DNA of 63,558 nt, filler included, from Folioceros fuciformis (taxonomy: Eukaryota): assembly GCA_049999805.1 (NCBI GenBank). It is 18 parts of 18 records of this genome, joined end to end, with 100 filler letters (N's around TTAATTAATTAA, not from the genome) between each part and the next. Parts side by side here need not be neighbours in the genome. Positions count along the whole stretch, not along the records: positions 39,621 to 47,063 come from JBNGIO010006752.1; 17 more parts are not named here. One strand, 5' to 3'. The translations under genes were made by a program, and so were the position numbers. Positions 39,521 through 47,834 of the stretch are shown here, piece after piece; within the stretch, counting starts at the first letter, position 1, and each line of letters begins with the position of its first letter. Under the pieces are notes generated by a model. It searched no databases, was not told the DNA's origin, and worked only from the letters and a program-made list of their open reading frames with translations.

Positions 39521-39620
39521 NNNNNNNNNNNNNNNNNNNNNNNNNNNNNNNNNNNNNNNNNNNNTTAATTAATTAANNNNNNNNNNNNNNNNNNNNNNNN
39601 NNNNNNNNNNNNNNNNNNNN

Positions 39621-40420
39621 TCCTTATCCTCACTGATGGGCTGCAAGCGAGCCTGGACATTCATAAGAGTACTTGGAGACAAAGCATCTGTTGTTTGAAA
39701 CTCTTGATCATCTTTCATAGAAACATCACCATCCATTATAACAACACCCCACTCTGCATTCTTACATGATGGACAATCATGTTGTCCAATATTTGCACAA
39801 TTTTGACAAAAATTAGATGCATTTTCATCTTCATGTGTGTCATTCTTCAAACTCACAATGGGCTGACCAAAGTTTCCTTCATCACATGTAGGACATCTTT
39901 TCCCGAATCCTTTCTTGAAACTATATCTCACACACATCAAATGACACACATGGTTACAATCCCAAGGGCAATATCTTTCCACTTCGGAAATGGGTTGTTG
40001 ACAAATCCTACAAGTTGTTGTAATGTCATGCACTAATTCCTCATCACAAAGTTGATAGATATGGCGGTGTGCCAAATGGGCTGGCCTTACTAAAGGAACT
40101 AAGTACTTAATTGGGTCCTCATTAGGATTAGATACTTGTAGAGGTACAATGCAATTTTCAGGAAGGCGCAAAGTTTGCCCTAAAGAAGTTGCTTTAAGAA
40201 GGTGAGTGGGGACCAAGGCAAATGGTACATTCACTACTCCAGTCACTGCACTTTTGATGTTGTTTATTCTCACTTTGATTCCTCTTGAGGTTTCTCCTTG
40301 AATTTTTCCAAACAACCACTTCCTCCTATTGCATCTCACACCCACAGGGTCATCTACACAAAATTCTGAGAAGACTTCTAAATTGTTGTTTGGGGGCTCT
40401 AGAGATGTTGTACTAGACAT
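39621..40420 (-). CDS. Hypothetical RING-H2 protein, 3'-truncated
   Basis: CRIC...CNHVCHLMC...CPTC fits C3H2C3 spacing; a second Cys cluster CQNCANIGQHDCPSC follows. Confidence 0.65.
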
Positions 40421-41984
40421 TTATGAGAACTTGACAAGAAGTCTTATTTCAATGGTTCTACTACATGGGTCAATCTCGATCTTGTTAATCAATGGCACAA
40501 TCCACTGTATAATCTACTAACTATACCATATAATTAGTCAAGGGTAAGAAATTTTAGTTTAACCAAGTGAAATTCTAGATCATAATTTTATTTTTATTTT
40601 AAAATATGAATATAAAATTTGAATTATCTTTCATATAGACATGGAATGTAATCAATGATATCCAAATTTTTGTTAAAAATAAGATATAAAAACTATTAAT
40701 TAAATTAAAAATGAAGACTAATATACACACATGAATTCTAAGTGATATTTTATGTTCTTAGGCCATTTGCCTTTTTTGAAACCACTACTTGGAACCCTAT
40801 TATGAGCAAATAATATGATTAAGAGAAATTTAAAATAAAAATAGTACAAGGGAACTAACTTTCTAAATTATGTGTAGAAGTATATTCAATATGATGTATT
40901 TCTACTACATATTTATACATATTTTTAATCAAAAAATAAAGTAAAATACTTATCATTTTGAGTTAATTTGAGTAAGATTGTTCTTATGGAGAGATAGATA
41001 CTGGCTTCCCTTTAATGTGCTAAGAAGTCAATGAAAAACCGCTTGACATAAGTTTAATTTTATCTTCTAAAAAATTACTATTTAGTAAATTTCAATAAAA
41101 TTCTTCTTTTCATAATTAATATTTTTTTTAAGGATTGATTAATGATATGTTGTTAAGAGCATTTTTGTAATTATTATTAACTATAGTTTTAGTGAGATGC
41201 ATCCAATGTATCATAGCTTTGTAAAGCTTTGCTAAGTGACTTTGTAGAACTTAGCTAAATCCTAATTTTATATCAAGCCCAATTGCATGAAGGCTAATCA
41301 AGCTAACAACTTCTAGACCCTAACTTTGATATTATGTAGTTGAATTTTCTTGGTCAAGCTACTTTTAGGAGGAGCTTGAATGTAGGAAGTCCATGACTTT
41401 ACCAAGAGTTATTATTCCACTTTGTTTTAGTTTTGAATCTATTGAGTTAGTAAGCAACAAGTATGAAGAACATAAACAACATGATTTTGAAAGGGGGTTA
41501 ATGTATAAATCCACTCTACAGAATTCAAACCCTTCTGTAATTTTTTTTCCCACCATTCCAAAATATCATTATTTGCTAAAAATTTGAAAGACATCCATGT
41601 TTTTGGTATATAGAATGTAAGCTTGACTAACATACATGCTTTAGGTATAAAGAATTTAAATTTTTCCTCTTTTCTAGAATATGTGTCAACACAATCAAAG
41701 TGTATTGAGAGATTATTAAACTCTTGGCAAAAATGTCTTTGTATTCATGGTAATGTACTAGAGTATCTCATAAGCTTGGTGACTTTACAAATCAAGAGGG
41801 GTTTCACTTCAAGATGTGCAACAAAGGATCGTAGAATGATGAATTCACTTTAGACTAGAGGCCATTAAGAACAATGCCACAAATGAAACTAGGTGAAAAG
41901 ATAAAAATCAAAAGAGTTGAAAGCTGATCCACTAGCTGCTCTATTGAACATGCATGTGTTGCATGCTTCGTGCTGCATTGTGTG

Positions 41985-43072
41985 GAGATGCATGTGTCAA
42001 ATACTTCACATAGAATTTCTCATGGAGTGATTGCCTTGTTGCTTGTTGAAGATGCATCTATCAAATGCTTCACACAGACCTTCTCATGGAGTGACTACCT
42101 TGCTCAAGATGTATCTGTTAAATGCTTCACTGAGAACTCCTCCAAGAGGGACTAACTTATTAAAGATACATTTGTTAAATGCTTCACATAGAACTCCTCA
42201 AGGAGTGACTACCTTGTTGAAGATGCATGTGTTAAATACCTCATGAATAACTCCTACTAGAGGGGGTTGTGACAAACCCTAATACTTGGAGAGATTAGTT
42301 GTGTAAATGGACCCTTGTATCAACATCTAAGTAGATAAGGTTACTCAGCGAGATATATACGCGATAGGACAAAGGCTTGATGACACTCATTACTTGAATA
42401 GGACATTAGAGACTCAATTGTAAGTTTTGTGTGGAAAGTGCTTTGGAGAGCTTGGATAGCAAGCTTGTCAGAGAATGAAGGGTGGTAGTCAATTGGGGTT
42501 AAGATTGCTAGATTGTGTTGTGTAAGAATTCCTTTTAAATAGTAGTACCTTGAGGGAGTGGTTAGTGTATGGCAGGCTTCTTGGAGCCTAGTGCTATGTC
42601 TGTCAGAGTTGAGTTGAGTCTGTGCATGGTGGGCTTCTTGGAGCCTAGTGCTATGTCTGTGAGAGTTGAGTCTGTGCATGGTGGCCTTCTTAGAGCCTAG
42701 TGCTATGTCTGCCAGAGTTGAAGTCGCTGCAAAGCCAACACTTGTGAGAGTTGAGTGCTTTGGCTGTATGCTGGCCTCTTGAGAAGTGAATTGACAGGTC
42801 CAAAGTTGCAAGGAAGCCTAGAGTTAGGTGCATTGGAAGTTGTGCAATGAATCGAGGAGGTTTCCTTGAAAGGAAAGACCTATGTGAGAGCTTAGTGCAC
42901 AAGGAAAGACCTATGTGAGAGCTTAGTGCCTTGTGCACTCGTCTTTACAAGGTGAATTAACGGTGGTCTCTTAAAGGGAACTGACAAGGGTCAAGATGTT
43001 GCCTTGTGCACTCGTCTTTACAAGGTGAATTGACGGTGGTCTCTTAAAGGGGAACTGATGAGGGTCAAGATG
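41985..43072 (+). mobile_element. Probable decayed LTR-element 3' end: five 57-bp tandem repeats, PPT-like AGAGGGGGT, then a TG-starting LTR-like segment with internal duplications
   Basis: Repeats at 41985-42260; purine tract 42259-42267 followed by TGTGAC at 42268; duplications at 42575-42720, 42870-42930 and 42928-43072. Confidence 0.5.
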
Positions 43073-43704
43073 TGCCCCGAAGAGTGAACGAGATTCCATC
43101 CAAAGCTGCTTGGCAGGGGGAGGGAGCGTTACTTGGTGAGTATGTAATTGGGTCGGACAGTTTTTATTTCACCCTCCAGAATGGTTGGAAATCCATCGCT
43201 ACAACACCTCAAAAATTATGGAAAGACAGCCACAACACCACACACGTCGACCGTTTCTATGACATGGAAAATAACCCCTCTTCGCAAAGAGGACATTTCA
43301 CTTGTACCTAATAAACCAGACTTCCGTCATGTCCTCCTGCACGCCACATGTTGGCAGCAGAATGGCTTACTTGTTGCCCAGAAATCTTAACCATCACCAA
43401 GCACAGGTAAGCATTTACAGGGATCTAGAAGTTGCGACTGCGAGACCTAGAATCTAATGTCAATGTAATCAACTTTCAGCATTGGGCACGATGCCACATA
43501 ATGGACAAGTGCGGTAAAGAAATATCTAGGGGCATTGTACACTCTTGAGGAAGGATAAAATACAAGCTATTAACTTCTGACTCAGCGCGTGAAGACCCGA
43601 CTTCAGGATCCCACCATCAAGCTCACGTAGCGTCAGCCCATCAGGGAGTCCTGCAAGGAAAGGTGTAATCATCCGCCAATTTTCAAATCCAGATCATGGA
43701 TCCG

Positions 43705-46700
43705 CTATCGAAGCTGAAACTGATTGCCAGTTTCAAAAATAGCTGTTGTCAGGTTGTTCGCAAGCTCCTCATAGCTGCCATAGTCGGGCAGAATGAGCTC
43801 ATTGAAGCATGTGTGCGCCTGCATAAAAAAACCCAAGAGTCCAGCTCCACATCAACCTTCAATACTGAACTAAACCCAACTGGAAAATTCACGTAACACT
43901 CAAGAGCAGCTAGACCAACCACATTTACAAGGTTTTCTGAAAACCAAAGCTGTTCAAAGAGACGACATTACCTGAGGTAACCTTGTTGGATCAGAAACAC
44001 GAACAATATGGAAAGGTCTAAGGCCTTCACTCCCACGCAACCCCTGTACAAAGAAGGGCTTTCAGATTTACCATCCAGCACAAGAGCAATGCACGAGTCA
44101 TGCAATATACAAGCGTCTTGTTACCTTGAAGCCATCTGGATAGGGGACCTGAAAATGCCCCAAAACGAAAACGTTAGCAACACAATTAAGGCCCCAGGAT
44201 ATTTCATGAAATATATATATCTAACAAAATCTAAAAACATGCCACTATACACCTTTGATGTCCCAGTGACAAATTGCAATAGCCGTGCTCGCATCTCTTG
44301 ATCCCACGATTCTACCAGCTGGTAAGACAAGAACAAGAAGGGAAGTCAGCCAGGCTCTAATTCCACACAGTCTGCTAAACCGTTTTTGGTCTCGAGCTCG
44401 TTCCAGAAGCTTCCATTCAAAGACGTCACCTGCCAAAACCATCGTATGACATAGCAGTCAACTGTATCCCTATAGCCTGCTTTGTAGACGGTATGTTTCC
44501 TCCTGGTTGGCAGACAGGCACATACATAACAGTCAGCAATACGAACAAAATAAGGAGGGGAAACAATTCTAGATAGTCTGAAACAGCATACCAGTCGGCA
44601 GAGTCAATAATAGGGAGCCCACCAATAAGCCATTCGAGTTCATTTTCGTCAAAATTCTGAAATTAGCACCACATGAACTTAGATGACGGAACACCCAGAA
44701 GCAGCCAATCCAGGGAAGGACAAATCCGAGAAGATGAAAGTAGCTGGTGGCTTAATACAAGCATCAACAAAAACCAGACAAAGGAAACAAAGTGGCGTCA
44801 CACAGAATCCAACCTTCAACAAGGCCGGATCAACCACTCTTGACAATCCACTGCGTAGAGCTTGAAACTGATGCTCTACACTTTCTGCCACAGCCATGGC
44901 AACCAGGTGACCACGTAAGTCCCACAGATAACTACTGGTCAGAGCCAGAGCTGGATCCATTCCAATCTCAAATAGCGCAGGACAGAAATACATACCCCTA
45001 AGCTGATACGCAGCTACAAGGTCTACATATTCACGTTTGTTTTGTTCTGTAACGAGCAATTCTTTCCCCTTGGTTTTCAGCTGCAGCTCCAGAAAGGGAA
45101 TCAAGGTCTAACATGTGCTTGACAGTGAACGGTGACAACTAAGGACCCACTAGTCTTCAACATCAGTGGGGTAACTGCAAACATCATCTTACCTCTATTT
45201 CCTCATACGCTCCGAAGTTCTCTCTATCAACAGAAAATGTCAAGCCCAGATCTAGACCATCCAATTTATTTTCCAATAGCTGCAAGGGGAGATGGCAAAA
45301 ACGTTGTCAATAAAGATTTCATCCTCTCGTGCAGCTTGGTAGAAGTTAAGAGCACTGCACGCACCCAGCATAAGCTCCTGTAGAACTGCACATCAACAGT
45401 TGCCATATCATGATACGTCACTGGCTTGTCAAGAATTCGCTTATAGACCAGCCTGGTAAAATGGGCGTCAAGGAGGCACCCATCCAGAAGGGCTTTGCCA
45501 ACAATAGTCCCAATAAACCGAAAAAAGTCAAGGTGATCGGGGTTCACCCCCGAATTAGGATTGATTTGGTACGTATAGTCGTCTGCTGCACTGCTAGTGA
45601 AAAGCACATATTGAGGATTGAACACCTCCCTGCTGAGCACACTAAACCAGTCCCTTGTAACACCACCATCATCTCGTCCAACCTCTCCAACAAATTGTAC
45701 AGAAAGAGGGTTTCGTAAATCATCGTCGCTTATGGATGCAAACTGCACAGAGTGAGTGAGAAACATGAGGGTGTGAATCAGAAGGAAGAGGCACGGCAAA
45801 GGATCCCCTGGAACACAGTGAGCACCTGCAAATAAGAATCTTGGAACACTTGATCTCGTCTAACAGCAATCTGCAACAGTCTTCGTTCACCACGAGGGGT
45901 AGACGGTTCAGACTTGCCACCATCTCTCCCTTTGGCAAGCTCTCTGGAAAAAAATAGCCGGCACAGTGTCACACATCAGCAGCGCAGCTCAGTCACAGAA
46001 GGTAGCCCCAAACGCTGATAAGGTTGAGGAACTGGTGGACCCGAACAGCAACATGCGTCGCATGCACTCAGCAGCAGTCCAAGAACCAAGTATTTACACG
46101 GTCGAGTCTCACCTTGCGAGCCACTCCCGCTTCATTTTAAACAGGGATCCCATGCTAAGATGATCCTTCAATTCCGATATAGCCTTTATACTTGGGTAAT
46201 CTATCGCTGGAGACACCCTCCCATCCCTGCTGTAAGAATCATGCCTCGCGGGCGGAGCAGGCAGTATCCCCGACGAGGGTATAGACACTCTGTGGTCATT
46301 AATGGACAGCTGTATCGCAGTTTCCAGATCCGCAGCTGCAGCCACCACATGCAAAGACGCAGCAAAAACTAAGGCTCGGTTGGTTCAAAGTCCAGTCACA
46401 ACAACAACCCGACATAGGCCACACCGACACGGACTTCTCCTGTCCCTCTTCCACAATCTTCAGCTGAGTAAGCCACTCGAGCTCCAAAAATTCAAGCACT
46501 AAAACCTCCACATAAATTCACCCCGCACGCACGCACGCAAGCCCTCCCCAGCAGCTCCCGACCGACCCACCGGCGGACTACCCCACACAATGCAGCGCCA
46601 CCAGAGCACTCTCGCGCGGCAAGAATTGCGTGCCGAGGCAAGGGAAACAAAAAGAAGGGCCTCCGGGAGCTCTAAGAAGGCAGGAATTCCAGCAGAATCA

Positions 46701-46956
46701 CAAATTCACAATTCCCCGAACACATTCTCAGAACTGGTCTCCAGCAGATCCAGCATGCACCACTCCCACCTTCCCGCCGTCTCTGCCTCCGTTGCCGGTG
46801 CCCCACGCAGCTGATCGCGGCAGCCCCCAGCACCACCACCAGCAAGATCCCCACTCCCACCAGCCCGAGTGCCTCAAAATCCTTGGCTACCGGGTCTCCT
46901 CTCGGCACCCAGCTCCTCGAGTGAGGCCTCGATTGCACCATCTTTACCGCTACCAT
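43705..46956 (-). CDS. HECT E3 ubiquitin ligase with predicted N-terminal transmembrane helix and UIM; about 14 exons, ~535 aa
   Basis: HECT motifs FVGEVGRDDGGVTRDWF, YQINPNSGVNPDHLDFFRFIG, RLLQFVTGTSK|VP, RLPQ|AHTCFNELILPDY with catalytic Cys; stop at 43707-43705; GT-AG introns keep the frame. Confidence 0.9.
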
Positions 46957-47834
46957 CTACTCATCCCCACACCTCCAAATTCACATCCCCCGGGCCGCCT
47001 TGTCCACGCCGACACCAGGCCCCGGCGCCAGCGAGCCCCGCAGTCCGCCCTGCCCTGCCCTCANNNNNNNNNNNNNNNNNNNNNNNNNNNNNNNNNNNNN
47101 NNNNNNNTTAATTAATTAANNNNNNNNNNNNNNNNNNNNNNNNNNNNNNNNNNNNNNNNNNNNTGTCTGCCTGTGCTGGGTTGTGCTGGGCTAACGTCAG
47201 CTGCTACTGAGCGGATCGGATGAATCTTGTCGGGCGCGAGGAAGTGGGTCGCCGCCTCTAGGATTTAATGCTGCCCTGCTCTCTTCGCTGGACCAAAGAA
47301 AACGTGTCGCTCAAGTTTTAGACATCAGTTAACAGATGTTCTCCTTCGTCACGCACCCTCAGTGAGAAATTCCTTGGCGATCTCATTGGCAGCCAAACTG
47401 AAGGAAGAACGGCGTGAGGATTTTCATCACTTTGACACAAACATGCCAGCCAGTGTCAGTCACGATCTGAGTGTGGAGTCACACTATGACCGGTCAGTGC
47501 TGCGTCACCTCGTTGCTCAGGGTGGTGATCATCCTCACCGCGAACGGGATTCACACGTGATCGGTGATGGCGATTCATGGCCGCCATAGAATTAGGGCGA
47601 GTTTACCTCATGGAATGTCCGTTGCGACCTCTAACTTATCATAAGAAAGGTCTGTAAAACTGTTTTCACGGGATACACCTGGATTGTGTTCAATTCGTGT
47701 TCCACTTTTCTTGCGGGAGGCGCCACTTTGTTGTGCGCTTTAGGGTTGCGGAGTGGAGCTGGTTTCCAAGCTAACATTTACTCACACACTCCCTAGGACT
47801 GCATGGTTATCCATGCTCTTAAGAAGCTGTTCCA

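Follow-up and report, generated by a model that had tools for sequence, protein, structure and literature searches.

The window analysed here, a stretch of 63,558 nucleotides from Folioceros fuciformis, carries on the minus strand of one of its contigs (39621-47063, JBNGIO010006752.1) a 13-exon gene for a HECT ubiquitin ligase with a predicted membrane anchor near its N-terminus. The whole window contains 34 runs of 44 N that form 17 pairs, with 12 bases between the runs of each pair, which read TTAATTAATTAA in the one linker examined (47064-47107 / 47120-47163). These linkers join separate small contigs, and adjacency across any gap of the window is without biological meaning. The interval upstream of the gene (47064-47163), taken for a gap in the locus by an initial annotation made from the sequence alone, is one of the 17 linkers and not a sequencing gap within the locus. 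Since the contig ends only 107 bases beyond the start codon, window sequence past this linker is no guide to the genomic upstream. Two public runs were compared with the locus, X1 and X2, the latter from a related organism; their library type is unrecorded, so only the bridging of joints by contigs was used. The features of the gene are as follows.

46957..47063, minus strand: 5' leader, transcribed and unspliced to the contig end in X1, with an in-frame TAG and two tiny upstream open reading frames
46770..46956, minus strand: coding exon 1, residues 1-62 plus 1 nt, with a variable N-terminal tail, the hydrophobic helix, a Cys and an Arg cluster
46804..46872, minus strand: predicted transmembrane signal-anchor ALGLVGVGILLVVVLGAAAISCV, residues 29-51, with a Kyte-Doolittle 19-residue mean of 2.78, the maximum of the protein
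46809-46807, minus strand: codon of the juxtamembrane Cys50, within the predicted anchor; every sequence of alignment A1 has a Cys at the helix end
46771..46800, minus strand: basic cluster HRQRRQRRRE, residues 53-62; six of the 15 residues behind the helix are K/R
46336..46769, minus strand: intron 1, 434 nt, with joint 46335/46770 in X1 and X2; it contains 46463-46425
46113..46335, minus strand: coding exon 2, with the UIM-like motif, a low-complexity linker and the start of the helix FKMKREWLARE (residues 128-138, continuing into exon 3)
46295..46333, minus strand: UIM-like motif ADLETAIQLSIND, residues 64-76, matching the core [LIVM]xxAxxxSxx[DE]
45826..45943, minus strand: coding exon 3, pre-HECT region, ...LLQIAVRRDQVFQDSYLQ, spliced in X1 and X2
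43705..45742, minus strand: coding exons 4-13, HECT domain (Pfam PF00632), all joints bridged by contigs
45742-45365, 45279-45193, 45080-44996, 44884-44814 and 44656-44592, minus strand: coding exons 4-8
44502-44430, 44318-44253, 44148-44125, 44043-43972 and 43818-43705, minus strand: coding exons 9-13
44125..44148, minus strand: micro-exon of 24 nt, VPYPDGFK, with joints 44043/44125 and 44148/44253 in X1 and X2
43807..43809, minus strand: codon of Cys487, the catalytic residue (AHTCFN); A1 shows no variation at C488 of P0001
43707-43705, minus strand: stop codon TAG
43400..43704, minus strand: 3' untranslated region (UTR) on the X1 contig, which runs at least 263 nt below 43400

The locus is a real, expressed and spliced gene. 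One intron-less contig of X1, 2313 nt long and with 0 mismatches to the window, bridges 12 of the 12 introns (joints 43818/43972, 44043/44125, 44148/44253, 44318/44430, 44502/44592, 44656/44814, 44884/44996, 45080/45193, 45279/45365, 45742/45826, 45943/46113 and 46335/46770), and an X2 contig has the same joints, two of them shifted by 1-3 bases (near 44655/44814 and 45946/46116). Every exon boundary is GT..AG, the skipped pieces reading CT..AC on the plus strand. A contig that is intron-less and perfectly identical shows the pattern of complementary DNA; these contigs might in principle stem from a processed DNA copy, but such a copy would need to exist in two organisms. When X2 is set against the window, 40 differences are listed (22 further ones are not shown), 22 in the 3' UTR and 18 in coding sequence; among these 18, 16 are synonymous and 2 non-synonymous, and the reading frame is evidently under purifying selection.

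The X1 contig is continuous over 46770-47063 and extends 75 nt more, and at the other end it covers 43400-43817 and then 263 nt further downstream. Because the unspliced leader holds an in-frame TAG at 46959-46957, directly in front of ATG 46956-46954 as the initial annotation had it, this ATG is the protein start and no coding exon is spliced in upstream, which excludes the long exons beyond the gap that had been considered as a threat to the model. Within the leader (46957-46990, minus strand), ATG 46986 is followed immediately by TGA, and ATG 46964 opens a frame of four codons that overlaps the main ATG. A second in-frame Met at codon 6 (ATG 46941) lies in a better context, with A at -3 and G at +4.

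The transcripts corrected the gene model at one place. Of the three exons initially proposed behind exon 1, those at 46335-46113 and 45943-45826 are bridged by the contigs, but the piece at 46463-46425 is not: both the X1 and X2 contigs splice 46770 straight to 46335, skipping 434 bases, which rules out the earlier exon 2 in the main transcript. The resulting model of 13 exons and 520 amino acids supersedes an earlier version of 14 exons and 533 amino acids. Orthologues likewise read ...RRRE-A-[AGS]-DL... without an insert, the sole exception being one predicted isoform, and 46463-46425 could be a rare isoform. That exception, isoform X1 predicted for Physcomitrium patens (P0327, 544 amino acids), carries additional residues after the Arg cluster and before the UIM-like motif, which is the position of the intron containing 46463-46425; there may be alternative splicing at the position of intron 1 in mosses.

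A search with the largest exon recovered a tight family of proteins of 468-551 amino acids with 66-90% identity over the exon, the next matches reaching no more than 60%. Named members are Sphagnum magellanicum, the liverwort Calypogeia fissa, Physcomitrium patens (two genes) and Ceratodon purpureus, together with the algae Coleochaete scutata, Netrium digitus, Spirogloea muscicola and Klebsormidium nitens; the cryptophytes Guillardia theta and Hanusia phi are more distant members. Orthologues of 499-551 amino acids with the helix, the Cys and the Arg cluster occur in mosses, liverworts, Coleochaete, Zygnematophyceae, Klebsormidium and cryptophytes. When 1.84 billion representatives were searched exhaustively with phmmer, few belonged to the family, and scores then dropped from 534 to at most 383 bits for generic Tom1/HUWE1/NEDD4 proteins; the lone intermediate match, at 473 bits, comes from an arachnid WWP1 whose HECT domain is duplicated. 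A search with the N-terminal region returned 5 proteins only, from a word-based index too sparse in plants to give the taxonomic range, and the ESM Atlas returned generic HECT clusters only (best score 0.88). In Calypogeia fissa there is also a second, divergent paralogue (P0009, 468 amino acids) with a short hydrophobic stub and a basic cluster and without the UIM-like core; its N-terminus may reflect a truncated gene model or a real loss.

The C-terminal 360 residues form a complete HECT domain, intact over 10 small exons including the 24-nt micro-exon, as the initial annotation had read it. When PF00632 was run on the separate exon pieces of the window, four matched and two exceeded the cut-off of 23.9 bits (77.6 and 38.6), and among full-length orthologues 5 of 5 matched over profile positions 2-305 of 306, with E values from 1e-87 to 4e-94. 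The spliced model is 87% identical to P0002 across 357-358 HECT columns, has the catalytic Cys487 in AHTCFN and the Phe at -4, and ends in ...NQFQLR. Compared with solved HECT domains, the Sphagnum orthologue scores best with TOM1 (355 bits), Rsp5 (349), NEDD4 (346) and HUWE1 (345), and scores 196 bits with E6AP and 174 with AREL1, in line with the NEDD4/HUWE1-like type first assigned to the domain.

The description of a compact protein lacking the modules of large plant ligases also held up. Apart from HECT and sub-threshold UIM matches, a Pfam scan of five orthologues at E up to 10 gave no C2, WW, UBA, ARM, IQ, UBL or other domain and none of the DUF908, DUF913, UBA, DUF4414-type or PF14377 modules, and the N-terminal exons of the window, scanned at E up to 1, contained neither C2 nor WW. 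About 20 residues before the alignable HECT domain lies a helix F-x-x-K-R-x-W-L-x-R-E (residues 129-139 of P0001) that is invariant in 8 of 8 aligned sequences and recognisable in the cryptophyte; F129, K132, R133, W135, L136, R138 and E139 of P0001 are the invariant positions in A1. The alignment of solved HACE1 to P0001 begins at residue 126.

For the N-terminus, 28 family sequences were compared, many of them near-duplicates, of which 22 include the N-terminus and 6 are shorter predicted forms without the anchor segment; the anchor call combined the Kyte-Doolittle 19-residue mean with the count of K/R in the following 15 residues. All 22 have a hydrophobic window starting at residues 15-34 with a mean of 1.63-2.78, a Cys at the helix end and 5-7 K/R in the next 15 residues, and the uncharged stretch is at least 23 residues long across family members. 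The exon 1 arrangement reported initially, a hydrophobic stretch (ALGLVGVGILLVVVLGAAAISCV in this gene) followed by a basic cluster and interpreted by the positive-inside rule, is kept in every full-length orthologue fetched. In A1, R53 and R54 of P0001 and the helix-end Cys are invariant, and the helix sequence drifts between orthologues with its hydrophobicity kept. Such constancy of character under changing sequence is the behaviour of a membrane anchor and not of a packed helix. The combination of both features is specific: among 331 fetched HECT proteins of at least 300 amino acids, a hydrophobic N-terminal window, starting no later than residue 60, followed by at least 5 K/R was present in 21/21 family rows vs 0/4 other rows with such a window. 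In the AlphaFold2 model of the Sphagnum orthologue, built from 8 aligned sequences, residues 21-73 form a helix with predicted local distance difference test (pLDDT) values of 80-82 over 31-50.

Directly behind the Arg cluster, LETAIQLSIND (residues 66-76) fits a UIM core of the form hydrophobic-x-x-Ala-x-x-x-Ser-x-x-acidic. The core is found in 17 of the 28 family sequences, all land plant or Coleochaete, and is missing from Klebsormidium, Netrium, Spirogloea, four cryptophyte sequences and one further sequence. Its background frequency is 0.18 per 1000 amino acids in 303 non-family proteins, or about 0.0055 expected per 30-residue window. PF02809 and PF23625 gave no match in the window's own exon. 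The motif is conserved and unlikely to be chance, and we call it UIM-like, as it is not established as a UIM; of the UIM initially proposed for the exons behind exon 1, the core pattern in ADLETAIQLSIND stands, but it scores below the Pfam cut-off and is missing in several algal and cryptophyte members.

To place the family, a tree of 58 HECT domains and 360 columns was computed with IQ-TREE (LG+C20+F+G4, ultrafast bootstrap and Shimodaira-Hasegawa-like approximate likelihood ratio test), without an outgroup and without land-plant UPL1/2/8. Land-plant UPL1/2 are about 3700 amino acids long; sampling of long proteins spanned 913-2605 amino acids, and 10 large representatives taken up by name were 8 fungi, one Corallochytrium and one Selenidium. 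The tree has three clades, namely the anchored family including a cryptophyte (10 rows, 100/99), NEDD4-like proteins (14 rows, 100/99) and HUWE1/Tom1/UPL1-like proteins (34 rows, 100/98), the last including a protein of the chlorophyte Trebouxia named UPL1. A FastTree analysis of 124 rows agrees with these three clades. Forcing the family together with the Trebouxia 'UPL1' group costs 36 log-likelihood units and is rejected by the approximately unbiased (AU) test (p-AU 0.0035), this group comprising 6 'green' rows of which only the Trebouxia row is named and having been defined after the first tree was viewed. Being unrooted, the tree does not place the family nearer to either NEDD4 or HUWE1. 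It argues against a recent truncated copy of UPL1/2 and would be compatible with an old separate lineage; a copy nested within a UPL clade, the outcome that would have undone the initial proposal, is not what this tree shows, with the qualification that land-plant UPL1/2/8 are outside it. A cluster of cryptophyte proteins (P0166, P0300-P0302; 499-501 amino acids) has the same anchor-Cys-poly-Arg-HECT layout and falls into one clade with the streptophyte members (100/99), a grouping that suggests an older origin of the family or a gene transfer.

The family itself is not new: its HECT clade was catalogued in 2013, and the gene is annotated as hypothetical or 'pub1-like' in several genomes (the RefSeq names of the Physcomitrium orthologues are 'E3 ubiquitin-protein ligase pub1(-like)'). 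In Marín 2013 (PMC3712016), HECT domains of the family already stand in plant Subfamily V of a plants-only neighbour-joining tree, with Physcomitrella XM_001764270.1 and XM_001779876.1, Pellia FJ266089.1, Klebsormidium JO257519.1 and Chlorokybus JO195897.1 as members, and are described as an early streptophyte duplicate within Subfamily V that was later lost in spermatophytes. Over the passages compared, aligned HECT sequences in file S1 of that study match P0003, P0004 and P0007 with the family signature, and in the portion of file S5 at hand the clade members sit together in the Subfamily V tree; two Selaginella sequences beside the clade are without the signature over the stretch compared. 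Accordingly, the suggestion that the subfamily is missing from flowering plants agrees with our named members, which are only non-seed streptophytes and cryptophytes, but it is not novel, since the loss was stated in 2013. The words 'transmembrane' and 'UIM' have 0 occurrences in the main text of Marín 2013 (PMC3712016), and the available text of Grau-Bové 2013 (PMC3673628) makes no mention of a transmembrane segment or UIM. A paper on tomato HECT proteins (PMC8342558) refers, in the part seen, to transmembrane helices solely as a secondary-structure statistic, and in the Zygnema genome paper the one combination taken up is Ub-HECT (UPL5). No description of a membrane-anchored plant or algal HECT protein was found in the titles and abstracts searched. 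What we did not find in print, in the titles and abstracts searched and in passages of the two evolutionary surveys, is the anchor-Cys-Arg-(UIM-like)-HECT layout, the reach into cryptophytes and the place outside the NEDD4 and HUWE1 clades, although figures or supplements of surveys could show the layout.

Judging from the sequence features, we consider it probable that the gene encodes a single-pass, signal-anchored ligase oriented N-out/C-in, with the HECT domain in the cytosol. Residues 29-51 would serve as an uncleaved N-terminal signal-anchor, the short and unconserved N-terminal tail would lie on the far side of the membrane, and the Arg cluster (residues 53-62) would hold the C-terminus on the cytosolic side. 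The Cys found invariantly where the helix ends is a candidate for S-acylation. Right after the anchor, a short helix with the UIM-like core may bind ubiquitin attached to a membrane protein nearby or to the ligase, and a linker and the conserved helix would lead to the complete NEDD4/HUWE1-type HECT domain. As in other HECT enzymes, ubiquitin would pass from an E2 onto Cys487; from there it would go to lysines of the presumed substrates, those proteins that the tethered enzyme can reach. The enzyme would thus act like NEDD4/Rsp5, but permanently tethered instead of recruited through a C2 domain and adaptors, and one may speculate that it could ubiquitinate membrane cargo with no adaptor at all.

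Several observations weigh against this reading. A Kyte-Doolittle mean above 1.6 is by itself unspecific, being reached somewhere in 182 of the 331 fetched HECT proteins. The AlphaFold2 model of the Sphagnum orthologue is poor, with a mean pLDDT of 58 and low confidence over the UIM-like motif. That motif is absent from 8 of the 22 anchored sequences, all but one of them algal or cryptophyte, and its Pfam matches stay under the cut-off of 21 bits (UIM_2 at E 0.91 and 10.4 bits in P0003; UIM at E 7.1 and 7.2 bits in P0005). Moreover, a rough Wimley-White helix mean ranges over 0.20-0.73 across orthologues and so falls on either side of 0.4, which PMC4010795 gives as the boundary between endoplasmic reticulum (ER) and organelle signal-anchors; the target membrane therefore cannot be called.

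The same architecture could serve an organelle membrane. The anchor might target the outer membrane of mitochondria or plastids, where the ligase would keep watch over proteins at the organelle surface, in the manner of the RING ligases SP1 or MUL1/MARCH5. According to PMC4010795, signal-anchored proteins of organelles have a helix of moderate hydrophobicity with at least three basic residues right behind it, and the family has 5-7. The moss and liverwort helices, which abound in S/T/M/A/W, reach no more than moderate hydrophobicity (Kyte-Doolittle means of 1.63-2.0). However, the helix of the gene described here is strongly hydrophobic (2.78), the Wimley-White estimates among orthologues fall on both sides of the boundary, and anchors inserted at the ER ordinarily have a positive flank too, as their positive-inside signal. 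The family matches either kind of anchor equally well, and we regard an organelle address as rather unlikely. It is more improbable still that the hydrophobic stretch is no anchor; it would then belong to a soluble ligase, as a helix that is buried or amphipathic, or else be a signal or transit peptide that is cleaved off. Soluble HECT giants often contain Kyte-Doolittle windows above 1.6, but here the stretch is uncharged over at least 23 residues, starts 15-34 residues from the N-terminus, varies in sequence at constant character and is always accompanied by poly-Arg and the conserved Cys, and a cleaved peptide leading into the lumen would leave the HECT domain there without E1, E2 and ubiquitin.

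A further explanation is a truncated or decaying copy of a large gene of the UPL1/2 type, or a mis-joined gene model, and the clade is indeed filed in Subfamily V with UPL1/2 in Marín 2013 (PMC3712016). Nevertheless, the transcript-like contigs contain the complete reading frame and a stop codon upstream of it, the listed coding differences are 16 synonymous vs 2 non-synonymous, the same layout of 499-551 amino acids recurs from cryptophytes to mosses, and the family lies outside the HUWE1/Tom1/UPL1-like clade (100/98), its union with the Trebouxia 'UPL1' group being rejected. We give this explanation a negligible chance.

HECT ligases are normally soluble and reach membranes via C2 domains, adaptors or partners, and a conserved HECT enzyme with its own predicted anchor is unusual. 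Because the substrates of a signal-anchored ligase must lie within reach of its tether, the family would offer a testable handle on membrane-protein ubiquitination in bryophytes and streptophyte algae, and it is present in tractable models, namely Physcomitrium (two copies) and Klebsormidium. Its absence from seed plants (Marín 2013, PMC3712016) bears on the evolution of ubiquitin-dependent membrane traffic or organelle surveillance in plants, and its presence in cryptophytes could reflect either an older origin or a transfer. A broader interpretation, which we put forward as tentative and rather doubtful, places the family in the NEDD4/HUWE1 supergroup as a third, ancient branch, one that streptophytes and cryptophytes have in common and that is marked by a transmembrane anchor of its own. 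Plants are said to lack membrane-cargo ligases of the NEDD4/Rsp5 kind, and the family would be the counterpart of these in the green lineage. It would have persisted in algae and bryophytes, acquired the ubiquitin-binding motif near the origin of land plants, and disappeared from seed plants. If true, the loss in seed plants would mark a change in the tagging of membrane proteins for sorting.

Elsewhere on the same contig, an open frame of at least 266 amino acids (39623-40420, minus strand) lies in an AT-rich stretch and reaches the linker at 39620; the GC fraction is 0.31 at 40001-42000. The frame has a Cys/His-rich part with sub-threshold RING matches only (zf-RING_16 at E 0.004 and zf-RING_2 at E 0.01).

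Compared with known systems, the gene belongs to the same clade as the Subfamily V duplicate of Marín. That study covers HECT domains alone and has no NEDD4-type sequences in its plant trees (Marín 2013, PMC3712016), whereas here the family falls outside the HUWE1/Tom1/UPL1-like clade. To NEDD4/Rsp5/Pub1 (C2-WW-HECT) its HECT similarity is nearly equal to that with Tom1/HUWE1, and both would act at membranes; they differ in that the family is without C2 and WW domains, has a predicted transmembrane helix in place of peripheral recruitment and forms a separate clade (100/99). AREL1/KIAA0317, which has a predicted N-terminal helix, is likewise a small HECT ligase outside the big families, but its HECT domain is much more distant (174 bits). 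It carries filamin repeats and is restricted to animals and choanoflagellates (Grau-Bové 2013, PMC3673628). The giant solenoid ligases HUWE1/Tom1/UPL1-UPL2 (UBA/UIM/UBM) are among the best-scoring solved relatives and also have a motif of ubiquitin-binding type before the HECT domain, but they measure 3000-4400 amino acids vs 520 here, and the family is without DUF908, DUF913, UBA and PF14377. The plant RING ligases of the ATL type consist of an N-terminal helix, a basic region and a RING-H2 domain. They would follow the same logic as the protein described here, an N-terminal anchor with a basic juxtamembrane stretch and a cytosolic ligase domain, but their catalytic domain is unrelated to HECT and RING works without a thioester intermediate.

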